Source: Candidatus Baldrarchaeum yapensis | GTDB lineage: Archaea; Asgardarchaeota; Baldrarchaeia; Baldrarchaeales; Baldrarchaeaceae | Assembly (NCBI GenBank): GCA_016840465.1 | Contig: JAEOSH010000006.1 | Location: 2,886-66,885 of the forward strand | Reading direction: 5' to 3' | DNA length: 64,000 bases | Notes under the pieces: model-generated | What the model was told of the DNA's origin: nothing | The model's input: only the letters and a program-made list of their open reading frames with translations | Databases searched by the model: none | Translations under genes and position numbers: made by a program | Shown here: positions 33,301 through 61,896 of the stretch, one piece after another | Layout: the number at the start of each line of letters is the position of its first letter | Position numbering within the stretch: position 1 is the stretch's first letter

Positions 33301-35640
33301 ATGTACATAACCGATAATATTGCCAAATTGGAAGGACTGTTGAGAAAGTGGGGTATTTCCGAGTTAAGGGAGGTACAACGCAAGGCCATAGACATGGGGC
33401 TACTCAGAGGAGAAAGTTTGATTGTATGTGCGCCAAGTGGCAGTGGTAAGACGTTAATCGGAGAGATAGCACTTGCTCTTAATGCAAATGATGGGATGGG
33501 CGTATATTTAGTGCCCTTTAAGGCTCTTGCTGACGAAAAATTTGAGGATTTCAGGAAGAAGTTTGATTGGAAGAAAGTGGGAATAACGACTGGTGATTAT
33601 GACGTAGTTCCTGAAAGTCTTAGAAACTATGACATTTTAGTCACAACATATGAAAGATTCGACAGTATACTCAGAGCGGATCCTCCCTGGTTGCGAGAAA
33701 TAAAGGTCGTAGTTGTCGATGAAATACACATGATCGGGGACAAAAATAGGGGTCCTCGACTTGAAAGTCTCCTTTTCCGCCTCTCCTCGAAATTAAAAGA
33801 ATTTCAGTTAATAGGTTTAAGCGCTACTATTGCGAATCCGGAAGAAATTGCCGAGTGGCTGGGTTGTAAACTTGTAATGAGCAACAAACGCCCAGTTCCT
33901 CTCAAGTATCAGGTAGTTCTCTGTAAAAACAAAAGAAAGGAGATACTTGAATTATCGAGGAGATGTTTGGAGGAGGGAGGGCAGGCGCTTATCTTTGTTC
34001 TAACTAGGAGAGAGGCGGAAGACGTGGCGGTGATGCTGTCCGAAGTCAGTGAGGAATTTCTGAGTACAGATGATAGAAAAACTCTCGAAAATATTGCTAA
34101 AGACTTAGAAAAGGAGGATATGCCATCGATCTCAAAGAGGCTTGCGATGATTTTGCGGCTCGGCGCGGCGTTTCATCATGCCGGTCTTCCTCATAGGGAT
34201 AGATCCTTAGTTGAGAAATTATTTAGGGATAAGGTGCTTAAGCTGTTGTCTTGTACAACAACGTTGAGTGCAGGGGTGAATTTACCCGCTCGGTACGTGA
34301 TACTAAAAGATGTCACTAGAAAGAGAGGAAAGAAGATATCAACAGCGTTAGGGGCCAACGAGTTTCACCAAATATTAGGCAGGGCCGGCCGTCCCGGCTT
34401 TGATGACATAGGGATAGGTGTGGTATTAAGTTCGTCTCATAGGGAATTGCAATACATAAAGAGAAGGTACTTTTCCGGTGATGGGTTGGATCCAGTATAC
34501 GACAATGTTTTAAGTGCCATGATGCACTTTGATGCGCTTACAGAGCAGGTGCTTCTGCGAATTTTCGAGGAAGAACCCACGAGTATAGACTCTCTAGTGC
34601 AGTACTTCTCTGGGACATTCTGGGGTTGGAAAGTCGGCGGTCGCGAGGCGATTTCAAGAATTTTTTACTCAGAAGCAAAGGACGTTCTCAGAGGACTTAA
34701 GGAGATTTGTATGGATGCCCGCACATTGGAAGTTGACATTTTAGAATTCAACGGCATTTCTGTAAAGGCTCGGGTGCAAAGCGAGTCCTCATCGAAATGG
34801 TATAGGGTTCAAATAGATGCAAGCGGTAATGCGCAGTGTTCATGTCCCGATTTCAAGTTTAGGAGGAGAAAAGAAGGAGAACTCTGTAAGCATCTTGCAA
34901 CTCTAGTAAGATACATTGTTGAAGAGGGGATCGGCGACGCAATACCAGTGGTGCTCGATTATATTCGTATTACAAGAAATGTTGAGGTATCTCCGATATC
35001 TTACTTAAGGATCGGGGGCTTCATCTCATCTTCCCGTGATGGAACCCTTCATTGCACGAAGTTCGGAAAAACCACAATACTCCTCTATATAAAGCCAAAA
35101 ACTGCGCTGTTCCTTAGAGGTGGAATTATTCGCGTCGGAGATCCTTTAGAGAAATATCTTATTGAACTAGCCATACATGCTGCTCACTTAGAGGATAACG
35201 AGAAAATCGGGCCGCGCAGAATGAAAAGGTACGTGGATGCACTGCTTATGTGGATAGATGAATATCGAGAATCGGAGATTTGCGATAGTTGTAAAATAGA
35301 TCCGGGAGATTTCCAAATGCTCAGGGATAGAGCAACATGGATGATGCATTCGATCTCCATACTGGCATCACTCTTTAATAGGGGGAACGTTGCAGAGACC
35401 GCAAGAAAACTGGAGGAGAGGTTGAAACACGGCGTCAGGGAGGAGTTATTGCCAATATTAAGAATGAGAGTCGAGGGCCTCGGTAGGGTGAGGGCAAGGA
35501 TACTTTTCAATGCAGGGTTCAAAACCCCGGAGGATCTCAAGAATGCAACCTTAGAGACTCTTACAAGGTTGCCGAGCATAGGCAAGAATCTCGCGAGCAG
35601 AATACTCAGCCGATTGAAGCATAATACCATGGAACATTGA
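33301..35640 (+). CDS. Ski2/Hel308-like superfamily-2 DNA helicase with an embedded SWIM zinc finger and C-terminal HhH
   Basis: Motif I 'CAPSGSGKT', motif II 'DEIHMIGD', motif VI 'QILGRAGRPGFD', the SWIM pattern 'CSCPDFKFRRRKEGELCKH' (CxCx14CxH) and a C-terminal 'LTRLPSIGKNLASRIL' helix-hairpin-helix. Confidence 0.8.
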   Translation: MYITDNIAKLEGLLRKWGISELREVQRKAIDMGLLRGESLIVCAPSGSGKTLIGEIALALNANDGMGVYLVPFKALADEKFEDFRKKFDWKKVGITTGDYDVVPESLRNYDILVTTYERFDSILRADPPWLREIKVVVVDEIHMIGDKNRGPRLESLLFRLSSKLKEFQLIGLSATIANPEEIAEWLGCKLVMSNKRPVPLKYQVVLCKNKRKEILELSRRCLEEGGQALIFVLTRREAEDVAVMLSEVSEEFLSTDDRKTLENIAKDLEKEDMPSISKRLAMILRLGAAFHHAGLPHRDRSLVEKLFRDKVLKLLSCTTTLSAGVNLPARYVILKDVTRKRGKKISTALGANEFHQILGRAGRPGFDDIGIGVVLSSSHRELQYIKRRYFSGDGLDPVYDNVLSAMMHFDALTEQVLLRIFEEEPTSIDSLVQYFSGTFWGWKVGGREAISRIFYSEAKDVLRGLKEICMDARTLEVDILEFNGISVKARVQSESSSKWYRVQIDASGNAQCSCPDFKFRRRKEGELCKHLATLVRYIVEEGIGDAIPVVLDYIRITRNVEVSPISYLRIGGFISSSRDGTLHCTKFGKTTILLYIKPKTALFLRGGIIRVGDPLEKYLIELAIHAAHLEDNEKIGPRRMKRYVDALLMWIDEYRESEICDSCKIDPGDFQMLRDRATWMMHSISILASLFNRGNVAETARKLEERLKHGVREELLPILRMRVEGLGRVRARILFNAGFKTPEDLKNATLETLTRLPSIGKNLASRILSRLKHNTMEH

Positions 35641-37240: not shown

Positions 37241-37284
37241 ATTTCATAAACTCATAAGTTTATAAACTTATGAGTTTATGAAAT
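37241..37284. promoter_or_regulatory. 44-bp perfect palindrome centred on a TTTATAAA TATA-like box, about 15 nt upstream of the ATPase-nuclease gene
   Basis: Read directly: ATTTCATAAACTCATAAGTTTA|TAAACTTATGAGTTTATGAAAT. The central 8 nt are TTTATAAA. Confidence 0.5.
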
Positions 37285-37298
37285 CTTGGTGTTAAACG

Positions 37299-38885
37299 TT
37301 GTCCTACCTGTTACCAGTGACGGGCGAGGACTTCTTCGATCGGGAGCGAGAACTGGAGATCTTGGAAAGTGGGAAGAATATAGCACTTATAGGACCTAGA
37401 AAGTCGGGAAAGACATCTATAATATTTGAATTTGTACGAAGACATCCCGAGAAGAGAATTGCTTACGTGTATGTTCTTTTCCAGGAAGACATCAATAGCT
37501 TAATTTCAAGAATGGCAAGATCGGTGCTAATGGTAATACTAAGAGTAAGGGATGAAGTGCCGGCGCTTGATGATCTGATATCCGCAGCTATGGACAAGGT
37601 GCCGGAAATATCGGCTCTCCTATATAATCTTATGCGACATATCAGGAAGCAAAGACATGAGGAGGCTCTCGAGGCATTAGCTAATGTTTGCGAGAAAACC
37701 GGAACCGTAATCGCCATAGATGAGTTTCAGAACGTTTTTCAATTAGAGAAGTTCGTAGATATTCTGCGCATGATCTTACTCAAGTATAGAAAGGTACAAT
37801 GGATAATAACTGGATCCAGCATAGGAATCATGAAGGAACTGCTCATGGAACCATCATCTCCCCTTTTTGGGCACTTTGAGGTCGTATGGGTCGGCGCATT
37901 TGATATGCCCACGGCTTCAGAGTTTCTGGAGTTCTTACTAAGGCGTACCCAATTTTCGATGCCACCCGATGTGAAACAATACATTCTTGCAATTTCAGGA
38001 GGCTTCCCATTCTACATCTCAATCATTGTCTCAAAGTCCGTAGAGAAAGCCAAAACCAAACGAAAAGGGAAAATAGTCCCTTGGAGCGATGTCATGGAAA
38101 CCTTAGAGGAAGAATTGTGCCATCCGGAGGGCACTCTGTACAGGCATTTTATAGAAACTCTAGAGAAGGGTATGAAACGAAGAAATGTGGGGAAATATAT
38201 AGACGTACTTTACTGGATCGCAAAAGGAGCGTCAGATTTAACGACCATATCCAAAAACACAGGATTCAGCCCGCAGCACTGTCTGAAAATACTCAGATTT
38301 CTCGAAAAAAGCATGTTAATAGAGAGAGTGGGGGATAGTTACTTTCTGAAGGACCCTCTCATGGACATATGGCTCAAGAGAATATATGAGTTGATGAGCC
38401 GAGAATACTCCCCGGTAAGGGACTTTACACAAATAAAACTGATGTTAAAAGAGTATTTGGACGAATTGAGAAAGCAGATTTCGATAGGTGCGGAGGCAAG
38501 GATCAGAGAATTGCTTAGAGCATTCGATGGAAGAAGGAAGATACCAATAGCTGGAGAAATTGTAAGGACCCCAACATTTCAAATGGTGTCGAGGATTACA
38601 TGGAATGGTAATGAAATAGATGTTCTCGCAATCGGGTCCGAGGTGTGGGTTTTAGAAGTAAAAACCGGGTCTGTGAAATATGAAGATCTGAAAACCTTCG
38701 CTAGGAAAATAGATGACGCGATAAAATCCGGAGTTATTAAGCGTGTTGACAGAAGAATACTCGCATGCCTCGGTGATATTAAAGAGAATCTGGTAACAGA
38801 AGCAGATAAGCTCGGTATCAAGATTTGGAGAAAAGAGGAGATTAACAAAGCCATGCGGATTTTCGGTTATTATCCATTCCTGTAA
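37299..38885 (+). CDS. Arch-ATPase (Orc/Cdc6-related AAA+) fused to a C-terminal DUF234-type PD-(D/E)xK nuclease-like domain
   Basis: Walker A 'LIGPRKSGKTSI', Walker B 'VIAIDEFQ', and a C-terminal 'NEIDVLAIGSEVWVLEVKTG' (D…ExK). It has a non-ATG (TTG/GTG) start and is paralogous to the 60475-61896 gene. Confidence 0.75.
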   Translation: MSYLLPVTGEDFFDRERELEILESGKNIALIGPRKSGKTSIIFEFVRRHPEKRIAYVYVLFQEDINSLISRMARSVLMVILRVRDEVPALDDLISAAMDKVPEISALLYNLMRHIRKQRHEEALEALANVCEKTGTVIAIDEFQNVFQLEKFVDILRMILLKYRKVQWIITGSSIGIMKELLMEPSSPLFGHFEVVWVGAFDMPTASEFLEFLLRRTQFSMPPDVKQYILAISGGFPFYISIIVSKSVEKAKTKRKGKIVPWSDVMETLEEELCHPEGTLYRHFIETLEKGMKRRNVGKYIDVLYWIAKGASDLTTISKNTGFSPQHCLKILRFLEKSMLIERVGDSYFLKDPLMDIWLKRIYELMSREYSPVRDFTQIKLMLKEYLDELRKQISIGAEARIRELLRAFDGRRKIPIAGEIVRTPTFQMVSRITWNGNEIDVLAIGSEVWVLEVKTGSVKYEDLKTFARKIDDAIKSGVIKRVDRRILACLGDIKENLVTEADKLGIKIWRKEEINKAMRIFGYYPFL

Positions 38886-40065: not shown

Positions 40066-41493
40066 TCACCCCCTCACCGGACGCGCTTTCCAGTAATAAA
40101 ATCTATAATCCGATTTCTGGTGAATAAGCCTAAATGTAACTTCCACCGGCATATCAACATCCAACTCTCCCATAAGAACATCAGTTACCTCCAGTAGTAC
40201 ACGTGTTCCATCTTCAAGATCTATCACAGCCTTTATTCCGGGATATACGCCGTCTCCGGGATAGCCCCCAGGTCCTAAGAGAAAATCATACGTATACGTG
40301 AATATTTTCCCCCTTCTTGCAAGTTTAACAATCTCATACTTGTCCTTTGCGCCGCAAATCCTGCAAACACGGGCAACAGGGTATGTAATTCTTCCGCACT
40401 CCTTGCATTTCATCCCGTAAAACGGCAATTCGAAGATCTCATCTCTCCAATAAGTTACCACCGACGCCTTGGCAGGCTCGGGCCACCTGCGATCTCTAAG
40501 CCTCTTAAAGTCCATATACAGCTCATACGTCGGTAATAACTTTTTAGATCTTATGTGCCCCTTAACCCCACGTCTTTTCTCATTGATGCTCTCTATTTCA
40601 TCTGTAACTTCTACATAAAAAGCCTCACATCCGTCCCCATACCCGGCACACAATATTCTATCACCGGGTTTTGCATCCTCCAGCGCCGCGGCAAGTAATA
40701 GCAATGCATGAGCGGCACCGGTGACTCCTACATCAGCAAATAGAAAGTCCTGAAGTTGGCTTTTCACATCAATGCCAATCGCAGATGCAGCTCTCACGTA
40801 CTGCCTGGGATCGTTTGCGTAAAATGCAATCTTGGAGAAATCTTTCAAACAGAGTCCGGCTTTCTCTAACAGCGCCTTAATCGTTTCACTGAGAACTCTA
40901 ACATAAACAACATTATCCGCTCTTGGGTCGAATTGCATAACGTACCTATCCTCAGACCTCCTCCATGTTCCAAGAATGGGCTCATTCAGCACATGAAACT
41001 CTTTAACTTCTGCAATTCCACGCTCTTTCCCCAATAAAAACGCCACTCCTGCATCACCATATATCTGCTCCTGTGCAGAGCCCGGAACCGGCAACCGACA
41101 ATCCGCAACAGTTACTAATACCCTTTTGCATCTCCCGGACTTTATAGCGTCCACCGCAGCCCTTATAGCCGTGATCCCGCACCTCAACGAAGATGTAAAA
41201 TCCGCAACCGACACATCTCTCCTCAAATCGAGCGCAGATGCTATTATTGTCGCGTTTTGCTTCTCTATGTAGGGAGGTGTAGTCGTCGCAAAATGCAACG
41301 CGTCTACGCCCCTTACGTCCAAATCAGAAATGCAATCTAGCCCCGCCTCGACCGCCATGGTGATGCTGTCTTCGTCCCAGCCCGCTACCGCTCTTTCGCC
41401 GCCCATTGATGGAATGCCGGTGGCTCTGGAAAGTTCGGTTCTACTTATCCTCCATATCGGAATATATGCGCCATAGGAAAGAATACCTACCAT
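40066..41493 (-). CDS. HMG-CoA synthase fused to a C-terminal DUF35 (Zn-ribbon/OB-fold) domain
   Basis: N-terminal 'VGILSYGAYIPIWRI…GWDEDSITMA…DCR' is HMGCS-like. The C-terminal 'CKECGRITYPVARVCRICG' Zn ribbon and OB fold resemble DUF35. The start is taken at the internal Met with a GGGG RBS (track ORF extends to 41571). Confidence 0.8.
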   Translation of the reverse strand: MVGILSYGAYIPIWRISRTELSRATGIPSMGGERAVAGWDEDSITMAVEAGLDCISDLDVRGVDALHFATTTPPYIEKQNATIIASALDLRRDVSVADFTSSLRCGITAIRAAVDAIKSGRCKRVLVTVADCRLPVPGSAQEQIYGDAGVAFLLGKERGIAEVKEFHVLNEPILGTWRRSEDRYVMQFDPRADNVVYVRVLSETIKALLEKAGLCLKDFSKIAFYANDPRQYVRAASAIGIDVKSQLQDFLFADVGVTGAAHALLLLAAALEDAKPGDRILCAGYGDGCEAFYVEVTDEIESINEKRRGVKGHIRSKKLLPTYELYMDFKRLRDRRWPEPAKASVVTYWRDEIFELPFYGMKCKECGRITYPVARVCRICGAKDKYEIVKLARRGKIFTYTYDFLLGPGGYPGDGVYPGIKAVIDLEDGTRVLLEVTDVLMGELDVDMPVEVTFRLIHQKSDYRFYYWKARPVRG

Positions 41494-41742
41494 GACAACC
41501 CCTCTCATCCATACATCGCCAGAAGACGAATATTTAAACATTTTCAGTTGACATGTGGTCTTAAATGGCAATAATGAAAAAATTTCCGGACAATATTTAC
41601 AATTCTTGCGGGCAAATCTCCGATGCTGTGAAATATCGAGGTAAAAATGGGGACATCTGAGATAAAAATTAAGTAATCGTAGAACAATAACTCCCTACTC
41701 ACAAAATTTCCGTCACGAGAAAAGATCTACGGAGCGATCACT

Positions 41743-60123: not shown

Positions 60124-60415
60124 CTCCTCTCAAGAAGTCAATTATTTTTGAGCATATGCTCAATTTAAAATCTCCACCCAGATGTCGCTGGTATTCAAAC
60201 TCCTGAGTCGCACATTACAAAGAATGTGTAATGCTCGGACAATCATGCACCAACAGATGTGACTCGCAATAATGAGAGCAACATGCTTAAGAATAGAATT
60301 AAAAATCGTTTTTTAAGCAATTTGACGTAAAAATTGTACGCTAAGACCGATTAAAAGGTCTGATGATTTTTGACGCAATCCGCCGCAAACAACGCATCAT
60401 TAAGAAAATGCATTT

Positions 60416-60463
60416 ATCTACTTATGAGTAGTCTACTATAAAGTAGACTACTCATAAGTAGAT
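60416..60463. promoter_or_regulatory. 48-bp inverted repeat (22-nt perfect arms, 4-nt spacer) centred on TATAAA, 11 nt upstream of the second ATPase-nuclease gene
   Basis: Read directly: ATCTACTTATGAGTAGTCTACT-ATAA-AGTAGACTACTCATAAGTAGAT. The centre reads CTATAAAG, and 'AAGGGGA' lies between the repeat and the ATG. Confidence 0.5.
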
Positions 60464-60474
60464 AAGGGGATGAC

Positions 60475-61896
60475 ATGCAGAATCACGCTTTTATCAATAG
60501 AGAGAAGGAACTCTCCGTTCTGCATGAGCGGTTTAAAACATCCCGTGCTGAGCTCATAGTGGTGTACGGAAGAAGACGCGTGGGGAAGACCACAATACTA
60601 AAGGAGTTCCTGAAAAGAGTAGGTGGAGTGTATTTCCTCGGCAGACAAGAATCGGAATTAGATCAGTTGCGCAGGTTTTCCTCGATACTTGCAAGATACT
60701 TCGGAGACAAGTTCTTAGAAAAGAGTCCATTTACGAACTGGGATGGACTTTTTGAGTACCTTGCCAGCAAGGCTGAGAATCAACGAGTAGTGGTGATATT
60801 CGATGAGTTTCCGTATATGGTTTCTAGTTGCCCTAAACTGCCATCAATATTGCAGGACTTCTGGGATAACAGATTATCATATACGAAGATCTTCATAGTA
60901 CTTTGCGGCTCCAGCATCGGAATGATGGAGGAGATAATCGGTGGTAAAAGCCCACTTTACGGTAGAAGAACCGGACAACTACGTATAGGTCCCCTTAAAT
61001 TCTCTGATGTCCGGAAGTTTTTTCCTAAGTACACATTTAGAGACCAAATAACTGTATATGCCGTTTTGGGCGGGACTCCCGCATATCTCGTCCAATTTGA
61101 TACTCAAAAGAATATCATGTCAAACATCGAGGAGAACGTACTAAGGACAGATGCATTCCTTTATCAGGACCCTCTCTTCGTGCTCAGGGAAGAAATAGAA
61201 GAACCGCGGTTCTATTTCTCAATACTTAAAGCAATAGCCTATGGCGCAACGCGTCTGTCAGACATAATTAATCTCACAGGCCTAGGGAAGGGATTGGTTT
61301 CAAAATATATTGCAACACTAATAGACCTAGATCTAATTAAGCGTGAAGTTCCTGTCACAGAGAAACACCCCGAAAAGTCCAGAAAGGGAATTTACAAAAT
61401 AAAAGACCACTTTTTCAGATTCTGGTTCCGTTTCATATATCCTCACATGGAAGAAATTGAACTTGGCGACACAAAGTTCATAATCGACACTATAGAGCGC
61501 AACCTCCAAGAGTTCGTAGCTCCTGTGTTTGAAGAAATCTGCATGGAGGCCCTTAAGATTCTTAACTTAAAAAATAAACTGCCAACTCGTTTTTTACAGT
61601 TCGGAAAATGGTGGAATAGAGGAGAAGAGATAGACATAGTTGCATTAGATCCTCGCACAAAATGCATGCTGGTCGCAGAATGTAAATGGAGCACAAAACC
61701 AGTTTCTGCATCAGAACTCGGTAGGCTTGTTGAAAAAGCAGAACTTGTGGAGTGGATGAACGACACTAGGAAAACCTTCTATGCATACTTTTCCTCGGGC
61801 GGCTTTACAAAATCAGCATATAGTGTTGCACAAGAATACAACATCTTTACATTTGATCTAGAAAAACTGGAGAAAATTTTCAGTAATAAAGTTTAG
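60475..61896 (+). CDS. Arch-ATPase (AAA+) fused to a C-terminal DUF234-type PD-(D/E)xK nuclease-like domain (paralog of 37299-38885)
   Basis: Walker A 'VVYGRRRVGKTTIL', Walker B 'VVIFDEFPY', and a C-terminal 'EEIDIVALDPRTKCMLVAECKWS' (D…ExK). Confidence 0.75.
   Translation: MQNHAFINREKELSVLHERFKTSRAELIVVYGRRRVGKTTILKEFLKRVGGVYFLGRQESELDQLRRFSSILARYFGDKFLEKSPFTNWDGLFEYLASKAENQRVVVIFDEFPYMVSSCPKLPSILQDFWDNRLSYTKIFIVLCGSSIGMMEEIIGGKSPLYGRRTGQLRIGPLKFSDVRKFFPKYTFRDQITVYAVLGGTPAYLVQFDTQKNIMSNIEENVLRTDAFLYQDPLFVLREEIEEPRFYFSILKAIAYGATRLSDIINLTGLGKGLVSKYIATLIDLDLIKREVPVTEKHPEKSRKGIYKIKDHFFRFWFRFIYPHMEEIELGDTKFIIDTIERNLQEFVAPVFEEICMEALKILNLKNKLPTRFLQFGKWWNRGEEIDIVALDPRTKCMLVAECKWSTKPVSASELGRLVEKAELVEWMNDTRKTFYAYFSSGGFTKSAYSVAQEYNIFTFDLEKLEKIFSNKV

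Follow-up and report, generated by a model that had tools for sequence, protein, structure and literature searches.

The stretch of DNA considered here, called the window in what follows, comprises 64,000 nucleotides of contig JAEOSH010000006.1 from the Asgard archaeon Candidatus Baldrarchaeum yapensis. It raises the question of why two of its genes, each encoding an ATPase joined to a predicted nuclease, start directly behind a long palindrome. Gene A (37299..38885, + strand) encodes a 528-residue protein with an ATPase_2 domain, a putative winged helix and a divergent DUF234/PD-(D/E)xK region; gene B (60475..61896, + strand) encodes a 473-residue protein with an ATPase_2 domain, a putative winged helix and DUF234, which matches the PDC-S27 model of PADLOC over its full length. 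Both palindromes are built around short boxes. Arrays of such boxes are family-specific inverted-repeat sites that overlap promoter-like elements in Bacteria and Archaea, and it is well supported, judging from their sequence and placement, that they would serve as repressor-type operators.

The palindrome before gene A is perfect over 44 bp (37241..37284) and ends 14 bp before the start codon. It is centred on the TATA-box-like element TTTATAAA (37259..37266, + strand, about 36 bp before the start codon), for which a promoter role is suggested by the archaeal TATA consensus. Two boxes flank this element: box A1, ACTCATAAGT, of the ACT-N4-AGT type (37250..37259) and box A2, ACTTATGAGT (37266..37275), 16 bp from A1. 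The palindrome before gene B spans 52 bp (60414..60465), with perfect 24-nt arms and a 4-nt spacer, and ends 9 bp before the start codon. It holds three boxes at a spacing of exactly 15 bp, namely B1, ACTTATGAGT (60420..60429), B2, ACTATAAAGT (60435..60444), and B3, ACTCATAAGT (60450..60459); the middle box covers the TATA-like sequence CTATAAAG at the centre. The 10-mer ACTTATGAGT or its complement occurs in both palindromes, and all four exact copies in the window sit in these two promoters. No other long, perfect, closely spaced inverted repeat was found in the 64 kb. The preliminary description of the window had assigned each gene its own palindromic promoter element. Both palindromes are real; however, the two promoters share one box core, ACTYATRAGT. 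Their palindrome scores (22 for A and 24 for B) are the highest among 85 upstream regions, the next being 20, 20 and 19, and when family upstream regions are shuffled with matched composition, 0.1% of the shuffles score at least 12. Perfect symmetry over 44–52 bp exceeds what an operator needs, and most relatives keep only the half-sites; strong selection, recent conversion or hairpin-templated repair may lie behind it.

Is this arrangement shared by the relatives of the two genes? The sample consisted of 80 loci of family B, taken from bacterial and archaeal genomes that each represent a species, together with four family A loci. The 130 nt upstream of 83 family genes were compared with the regions upstream of neighbouring genes at the same loci. 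The best palindrome score had a median of 8 for the family genes and 5 for the neighbours, and scores of at least 10 were found in 41% of the family upstream regions, as against 7% of all controls, 11% of the clearly intergenic controls and 0.6% of shuffles (family versus intergenic controls, Mann-Whitney p = 3.5e-18). The palindromes fall into several classes, including ACT-N4-AGT (for example TATACTTTAAAGTATA), AATC-N2-GATT (ATAATCGTGATTAT) and TTTAGTCAA-N6-TTGACTAAA. Exact ACT-N4-AGT boxes occur in 20% of the family upstream regions and in 1.3% of the controls, and where two or three of them are present, their spacing is almost always 15 bp. Fifteen exact two-box arrays were found in 783 kb, of which 14 sit 19–61 nt before the start codon of a family gene, while the last is found about 210 bp downstream of a family paralog that is truncated. 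At L061 (97-1339), a perfect array of two boxes, ACTCATAAGTAAATAACTCATGAGT, with nearly the box sequence of the window, follows a truncated paralog of the family and stands about 20 nt upstream of an unrelated gene encoding 992 residues; it could be a case of operator capture or a remnant.

A reverse test made no use of protein information. Metagenomes were scanned for three boxes at 15-bp spacing, and 80 loci were kept. Trivial 15-bp tandem repeats made up 56 of these and were set aside; one of the 56 adjoins a family gene. Among the 24 non-tandem arrays, 16 stand directly before a gene recognised by the hidden Markov models of the family, and the other eight mostly have no adjacent gene or lie in low-complexity sequence. 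At two loci, L115 (10712-12035) and L141 (3299-4521), the array precedes an ATPase_2-winged-helix protein (418 and 383 residues) that lacks the nuclease; the array in L115 runs to about five units of 15 bp, in which a AGTTGGCAACT core is conserved. Since neither protein has a nuclease domain, the array appears to track the ATPase-DNA-binding module and not the nuclease, and it may be a general feature of ATPase_2-winged-helix proteins.

What exactly is conserved in the array was read from a position matrix of 20 two-box arrays that had been ascertained through the protein. At positions outside the selection, Y4, R7 and A11 were each found in 19 of the 20 arrays and T15 in 18. The half-site is therefore about 5 bp long, TACTY with the inverse RAGTA. 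Successive half-sites point in opposite directions, are separated by gaps of 2 and 3 bp and repeat with a period of 15 bp; the interiors of the boxes are only partly symmetric. It is thus the sequence and not the pairing that is conserved, which argues for recognition of the DNA by a protein and against an RNA hairpin. Family genes with these half-sites in front of them were found in Thermococcus, Methanoregula, Methanospirillum, an Asgard archaeon, Caldiserica, Pseudothermotoga, Veillonellaceae and Deltaproteobacteria.

In both domains of life the boxes lie around core promoter elements. TATAAT lies between two boxes in many bacterial loci (such as L013, L018, L022, L035, L040, L050 and L052), and in a bacterial member located on a viral contig, TATAAT comes directly after two boxes. 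In archaeal loci (L008, L012, L015, L016 and L028), a TTTAAATA/TTTATATA element stands just upstream of the boxes or between them, and the final box often touches the start codon or overlaps it, a sign that the transcripts may be leaderless. In the closest relative of B (L213), a TATA-like element is followed downstream by two boxes at a distance of 15 bp. It had been thought plausible at the outset that a palindromic promoter element represses a potentially toxic nuclease; this view has gained ground, as the palindromes would act like repressor operators overlapping the promoter. No description of the promoter box array was found in the literature, and the promoter-embedded array seems new.

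The proteins behind these promoters are members of a known family, B being an ordinary PDC-S27 protein and A a divergent one. The AAA+ ATPase_2 domain extends over 37332..38018 (+ strand, residues 12-240) in A and over 60490..61098 (+ strand, residues 6-208) in B, and both pass the gathering cutoff of the Pfam family ATPase_2 (PF01637; 59.8 bits for A and 117.9 bits for B against 33.2). Walker A reads GPRKSGKT in A (G32-T39) and GRRRVGKT in B (G32-K38), and Walker B reads DE in both (D141-E142 and D110-E111), in agreement with the patterns GxxxxGK[TS] and hhhhDE. As first described, both motifs are intact: G32-R34-K35-G37-K38-T39 and D141-E142 are invariant in the alignment of the A subfamily, and G32-R34-R35-G37-K38 and D110-E111 in that of the B family. 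The only relatives of solved structure found by sequence were PDB 2qen and 2fna, with E values of about 1e-5 to 2e-6. The Orc1/Cdc6 model TIGR02928 (cutoff 181.3 bits) gave 11.6 bits (E = 0.093) for B and no match for A. A transposon reading after TnsC/TniB was also tried and rejected: only the ATPase shows any similarity, and that is weak (PDB 7ufi, E = 0.026; Pfam TniB, E ~0.004), and neither transposase genes nor terminal repeats lie near A or B.

Between the ATPase and the nuclease, both proteins probably contain a winged helix, as far as weak profile matches tell. In A, the putative domain (38187..38435, + strand, about residues 297-379) has weak Pfam and NCBIfam matches to Rrf2, the helix-turn-helix (HTH) domains of Cmi2 and Csa3, and Sso10a. 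In B (61213..61347, + strand, residues 247-291), the weak matches are to HTH_IclR, MarR_2, HTH_5 and HTH_45, and precomputed annotation assigns these HTH families to many homologs of B too.

The C-terminal part was examined by structure prediction, the check proposed together with the nuclease claim. AlphaFold models of residues 345-528 of A and 305-473 of B have predicted local distance difference test scores of 89.1 and 93.4, and both follow the order alpha-beta-beta-beta-alpha-beta, that is, a long helix, a beta-meander, a helix and a further strand. The best PDB folds found by Foldseek were Cdn1, NucS, VC1899, Can2, Card1, AF1548 and EndoMS for A, and MspJI, NucS, Cdn1, Card1, EndoMS, AF1548 and AspBHI for B. 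All top matches of both models are PD-(D/E)xK nucleases, with Foldseek probabilities of ~1.0 and E values down to 5e-5. By sequence, the C-terminal profile of A found nothing significant among PDB chains, the best relevant match being Can2 (8bao, E = 0.41); the fold comparison was therefore needed for A. The nuclease-fold domain of A, placed by model and profile comparison, occupies 38424..38882 (+ strand, about residues 376-528). In B, the DUF234 region together with the full fold occupies 61423..61893 (+ strand); Pfam covers residues 317-407 and the fold runs to the C-terminus.

The catalytic-type motifs within these domains are E439-I-D441 ... E453-V-K455 in A (38613..38663, + strand) and E385-I-D387 ... 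E402-C-K404 in B (61627..61686, + strand). E439, E453 and K455 are invariant in the A alignment and D441 is conserved in at least 90%, with E399, R403 and E404 conserved on the first core helix; in the B alignment, E385, D387, E402 and K404 are invariant and E353 nearly so. Both proteins show the residue pattern of the superfamily, an acidic residue on the first core helix (E399/E404 in A, E353 in B), D on strand 2 (D441, D387) and E-x-K on strand 3 (E453-x-K455, E402-x-K404), each at the expected element of the model. The triads quoted in the preliminary description are thus real, and structure prediction gave the PD-(D/E)xK fold in both proteins, not its absence. It is well supported by these models that the C-termini of A and B are PD-(D/E)xK folds with a catalytic-type motif. 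The statement that both carry DUF234 needs a qualification. B matches Pfam DUF234 (PF03008) with 107.4 bits over residues 317-407 (gathering threshold 22.5), but A has no DUF234 match in Pfam at E <= 0.1. The C-terminal alignments of A and B match each other with 96.3% probability and E = 1.6e-9 in a profile-profile comparison, with the motifs in register. With its remote homology supported by this comparison, A is best called a divergent relative of DUF234 and not a member at the level of Pfam.

How are the two genes related to each other? BLASTP aligned A and B at 23% identity over ~458 columns (E = 8e-11); the start codon of A is TTG, which agrees with the N-termini of its homologs in the family alignment. 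The homology of what had been called a paralogous pair is therefore real, but duplication within the Baldrarchaeum genome is less likely than separate acquisition. A and B are probably separate acquisitions because the nearest relatives of A are only ~30% identical and some of them lie on contigs with bacterial-looking neighbour genes. The A subfamily is small: a word-indexed search found ~20 full-length relatives at ~30% identity, and an exhaustive search of 1.84 billion representatives with the C-terminal profile found 280 clusters at E <= 1e-3, in which the match is nearly always C-terminal in proteins of ~540 residues. The B family is very large, with 7,947 of 8,000 scored candidates at E < 1e-3.

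The family has been met before. In a 2012 catalogue, DUF234/COG1672 is PD-(D/E)xK family 76, a domain found in fusion with an AAA+ ATPase (PMC3424549). According to a survey of archaeal immunity from 2026, PDC-S01 and PDC-S27 each join an ATPase domain to a PD-(D/E)xK member, and PDC-S27, with 3,503 archaeal instances, is among the most frequent defence candidates in Archaea (PMC12988326). The main text of a 2024 "guilt-by-embedding" preprint does not mention S27, S01 or DUF234. B matches the PADLOC model of PDC-S27, PDLC04984, with E = 2.2e-58 (residues 5-451 of 473, profile positions 3-461 of 474). A matches PDC-S27 weakly and in part (E = 2.9e-5) and PDC-S01 better (E = 2.3e-8). Given these two publications, neither the architecture nor the defence hypothesis is new. 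The suggestion of a standalone defence module accordingly agrees with the published candidate status of PDC-S27, but it is not an original idea and there is no defence island around either gene. A defence role is plausible, though the local context does not support it.

The genes around A are an ADP-forming acetyl-CoA synthetase-like gene on one side and a thiolase/HMG-CoA synthase pair on the other, with a Hel308-like helicase upstream. B stands between a pair encoding an M28 peptidase and a metallo-beta-lactamase-type (MBL) hydrolase and the gene of prolyl-tRNA synthetase. The closest relative of B (L213, 59% identity) has a different but likewise ordinary neighbourhood. Other relatives are found in different company. 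One (L001) has a relaxase, TrwB and an Eco57I-like restriction-modification enzyme nearby; another (L002) has an nSTAND NTPase, a Gabija-like OLD-nuclease/UvrD pair, an integrase and a PIN toxin-antitoxin pair; near a third (L006) lie HicA, Uma2, a methyltransferase and a kinase that contains an ORC/CDC6-like domain. The relatives in L215-217 are accompanied by several PIN/VapBC pairs, AbiEii and DUF4143 ATPases. In Pyrococcus kukulkanii (L221, 1635-8374), four ATPase_2/DUF234 paralogs, one of them truncated, stand directly beside McrB/McrC. The sampled relatives are thus often, not always, found in a defence, toxin-antitoxin or mobile-element context. The neighbourhood check that had been proposed for the orthologs gives a divided answer, as both window copies lie among housekeeping genes. 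The contexts of the relatives fit the published candidate status and add no direct evidence to it.

Some observations were made in passing at these loci. Near the family A relative in L006, the gene of an N6/N4 DNA methyltransferase has a two-box-like array with one mismatch (L006:5528-5566) 38 bp upstream of it, which may be chance. At L215:1524-1648, a palindrome flanked by two TATA-like elements (TATATAGGGTTACGTTGTAACGTAACCCTTTATATA) stands upstream of a neighbouring AAA_14-DUF4143 ATPase gene of the PDC-S01 type; this related candidate-defence family may share the promoter organisation of the PDC-S27 type. Beside the thiolase in the window, an open reading frame of 501 residues (40066-41571, - strand) ends in an OB_ChsH2_C (DUF35-type) domain, which in L213 is a separate small protein beside the thiolase. 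It looks like an OB-fold protein fused to the adjacent HMG-CoA synthase-like enzyme, Pfam having matched the OB-fold only. The Hel308-like helicase (33301-35640, + strand) has DEAD, Helicase_C, archaeal helicase domain 4 and HHH_5 domains and a match to the SWIM zinc finger at residues 501-537.

Which protein, then, would read the array? Most likely it is the protein's own DNA-binding module, to judge from the following comparisons. The only protein that always accompanies the boxes, across distant phyla and both domains of life, is the gene product with its predicted winged helix, which counts for self-binding. Three paralogs in one Pyrococcus genome (L221) have three different upstream box types, as would be expected if each protein reads its own site. 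Relatives that have ATPase_2 and winged helix but no nuclease possess 15-bp arrays as well, which also counts for self-binding. At the position of K277 in B, within the putative recognition helix, 16 of 17 members with ACT boxes have K, and the AATC-N2-GATT class has V, R or A. K330 of A aligns with K277; in relatives from the A subfamily whose palindromes are unrelated, the residue is V or R. Among the 30 columns that best separate the classes, 12 fall in residues 57-85 of B (window 60643-60729), a helical stretch shortly after Walker A; this may be a second DNA-contacting element or just a variable region or insert.

Taken together, the explanation runs as follows. One chain unites an AAA+ ATPase_2 domain, a probable winged helix and a PD-(D/E)xK nuclease fold, and its gene would carry its own operator over the core promoter, made of ACT-N4-AGT boxes every 15–16 bp (alternating TACTY/RAGTA half-sites). 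The ATPase-winged-helix module would bind the boxes as dimers or as a higher oligomer, and bound boxes would block the access of the TATA-binding protein and transcription factor B (TBP/TFB) or of RNA polymerase. A potentially harmful nuclease would in this way stay at a low, self-limited level. As an effector it would most likely cleave nucleic acid in an ATP-dependent manner against invading DNA, in line with the PDC-S27 reading. The own product as binder, repression by binding, an active nuclease and the defence role are all inferred, and the explanation as a whole is given about an even chance of being correct.

Several points weigh against it. There is no defence island around A or B in the window, where the neighbours are housekeeping genes only, and most such candidates still await validation by experiment, PDC-S27 included (PMC12988326). 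A scan of viral contigs confirmed only seven relatives and carries little weight either way. When the sigma-70 consensus was scanned for, a scan that covers no archaeal promoters, a promoter-like site overlapped the first box in L013 and none was found in L050. A mutual-information test over box classes of 17, 15 and 4 members placed two of its 30 top columns in the winged helix, where ~4 were expected; there is no enrichment of the winged helix, and the result is confounded by phylogeny. Lastly, because A and B are only 23% identical and share one box core, and because relatives of A carry other palindromes, cross-regulation or a third factor would fit as well as self-regulation does.

A further-reaching version makes the ATPase_2-winged-helix module the array binder with a portable operator that has moved between Bacteria and Archaea together with the gene. 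The core promoter element alone would have been exchanged, TATAAT for a TATA box. The oligomer on the array would both repress the gene and keep the fused nuclease inactive, and lost occupancy, through titration by invading DNA or a change of nucleotide state, would couple derepression to activation of the nuclease. A and B, with one box type in an Asgard genome, would form a small cross-regulated pair. This version is possible, if on the doubtful side.

Among the rivals, the one that survives best leaves the architecture and the operator standing and changes the role, to housekeeping DNA processing (repair, recombination or chromatin-linked cleavage) or to pure gene regulation. The ordinary metabolic and translation genes around A, B and L213 suit it, and the repair nuclease NucS/EndoMS is among the nearest structural neighbours. 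The nuclease-less relatives keep the array, hence sequence-specific DNA binding may be the core function, and the defence label itself derives entirely from gene neighbourhood. However, the family is patchy, has been exchanged between domains and multiplies into paralog clusters, which is atypical of core repair genes. Close relatives have no conserved neighbourhoods, and McrBC, Gabija-like genes, restriction-modification genes, toxin-antitoxin pairs and integrases recur as neighbours. A housekeeping or purely regulatory role is judged rather unlikely.

It is unlikely, too, that the arrays are operators read by a different regulator, be it A or B controlling both genes or an unlinked transcription factor. 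The ACTYATRAGT core common to A and B despite their low identity speaks for such a regulator, as do the unrelated palindromes of the sampled A-subfamily relatives and the outcome of the class-position test. On the other hand, no shared host factor is expected in Bacteria and Archaea, where the same half-sites are found; paralogs within one genome have different box types; and the aligned K330 (A) and K277 (B) are the residue typical of ACT-box members.

A reading of gene and array as a selfish or mobile unit (addiction-like or homing-like), with the palindrome as a recombination or cleavage site, fares worse and is considered very unlikely. Patchy distribution across domains, neighbourhoods that differ between close relatives and an integrase adjoining the family gene in L002/L003 would all suit a mobile unit, and the two highest palindrome scores among the 85 upstream regions could reflect hairpin-templated repair or conversion. 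Yet neither gene has a second array downstream of it, the window contains neither terminal repeats nor a transposase, the four exact box copies are confined to the two promoters, and the position of the array is fixed relative to the start codon and the promoter elements. That the palindromes are RNA hairpins in a 5' leader, terminators of the upstream genes or small replication-origin elements set by an Orc-like gene is highly improbable: long perfect inverted repeats with AT-rich centres beside an AAA+ winged-helix gene superficially resemble the origin boxes beside orc1/cdc6, and perfect arms could fold, but what is conserved family-wide is the half-site sequence and not the pairing, the TATA-like centre implies that the arms lie mostly upstream of the transcript, no Rfam family matched anywhere in the window at gathering thresholds, and a replication origin was rejected since A and B do not pass the Orc1/Cdc6 model, neither site shows a GC-skew turn and the element is also found in bacteria.

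If the arrays are operators as proposed, what do they add? The two proteins themselves are ordinary members of a known family; it is the array that makes their regulation and DNA recognition testable. It offers a concrete candidate for the binding site of PDC-S27-type fusions and suggests, in simple terms, how a nuclease that is possibly toxic may be restrained. As a signature in the DNA, it also leads to family members and to relatives without the nuclease when no protein search is made. Since one half-site array surrounds TATAAT in bacteria and TATA boxes in archaea, it is a clear example of a regulatory module that has crossed from one domain of life to the other.

The comparison with known systems can be made module by module. 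PDC-S27 of PADLOC resembles B over the full length and A only weakly, and a location in or next to known defence systems is found for neither window copy. In the "archaeal ATPase" family defined by ATPase_2 (PF01637) and DUF234 (PF03008)/COG1672, A and B pass the first profile and B the second. The likeness to PDB 2qen and 2fna covers the ATPase, the 2qen match reaching the start of the predicted winged helix; these chains of 350–357 residues lack the nuclease domain of A and B, and their entries, as retrieved, name neither a DNA-bound structure nor a function. NucS/EndoMS, MspJI/AspBHI, Card1/Can2/Cdn1 and AF1548 have the same core topology and the same placement of D and E-x-K on the strands. 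However, their identity to A and B is 13–24% and their partner domains are CARF, SRA-like or PCNA-binding; neither substrate nor mode of activation can be transferred.

McrBC-type machines couple an NTP-driven AAA+ motor to PD-(D/E)xK cleavage and may serve as a functional analogy to A and B. They differ in that A and B have motor, putative DNA-binding domain and nuclease domain in one chain and belong to another AAA+ family. For the regulation, the closest parallels are the operators of C-proteins, methyltransferases with an N-terminal HTH, and the BrxR/RptR repressors, all of which share with the arrays a palindromic operator that overlaps the promoter and controls a potentially toxic defence gene. 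According to PMC12255303, RptR represses defence genes. In these systems the regulator is usually a separate small protein, whereas in A and B the predicted DNA-binding domain lies inside the effector, and the operator of A and B is an array of alternating half-sites with a 15-bp period that is found in both domains of life.

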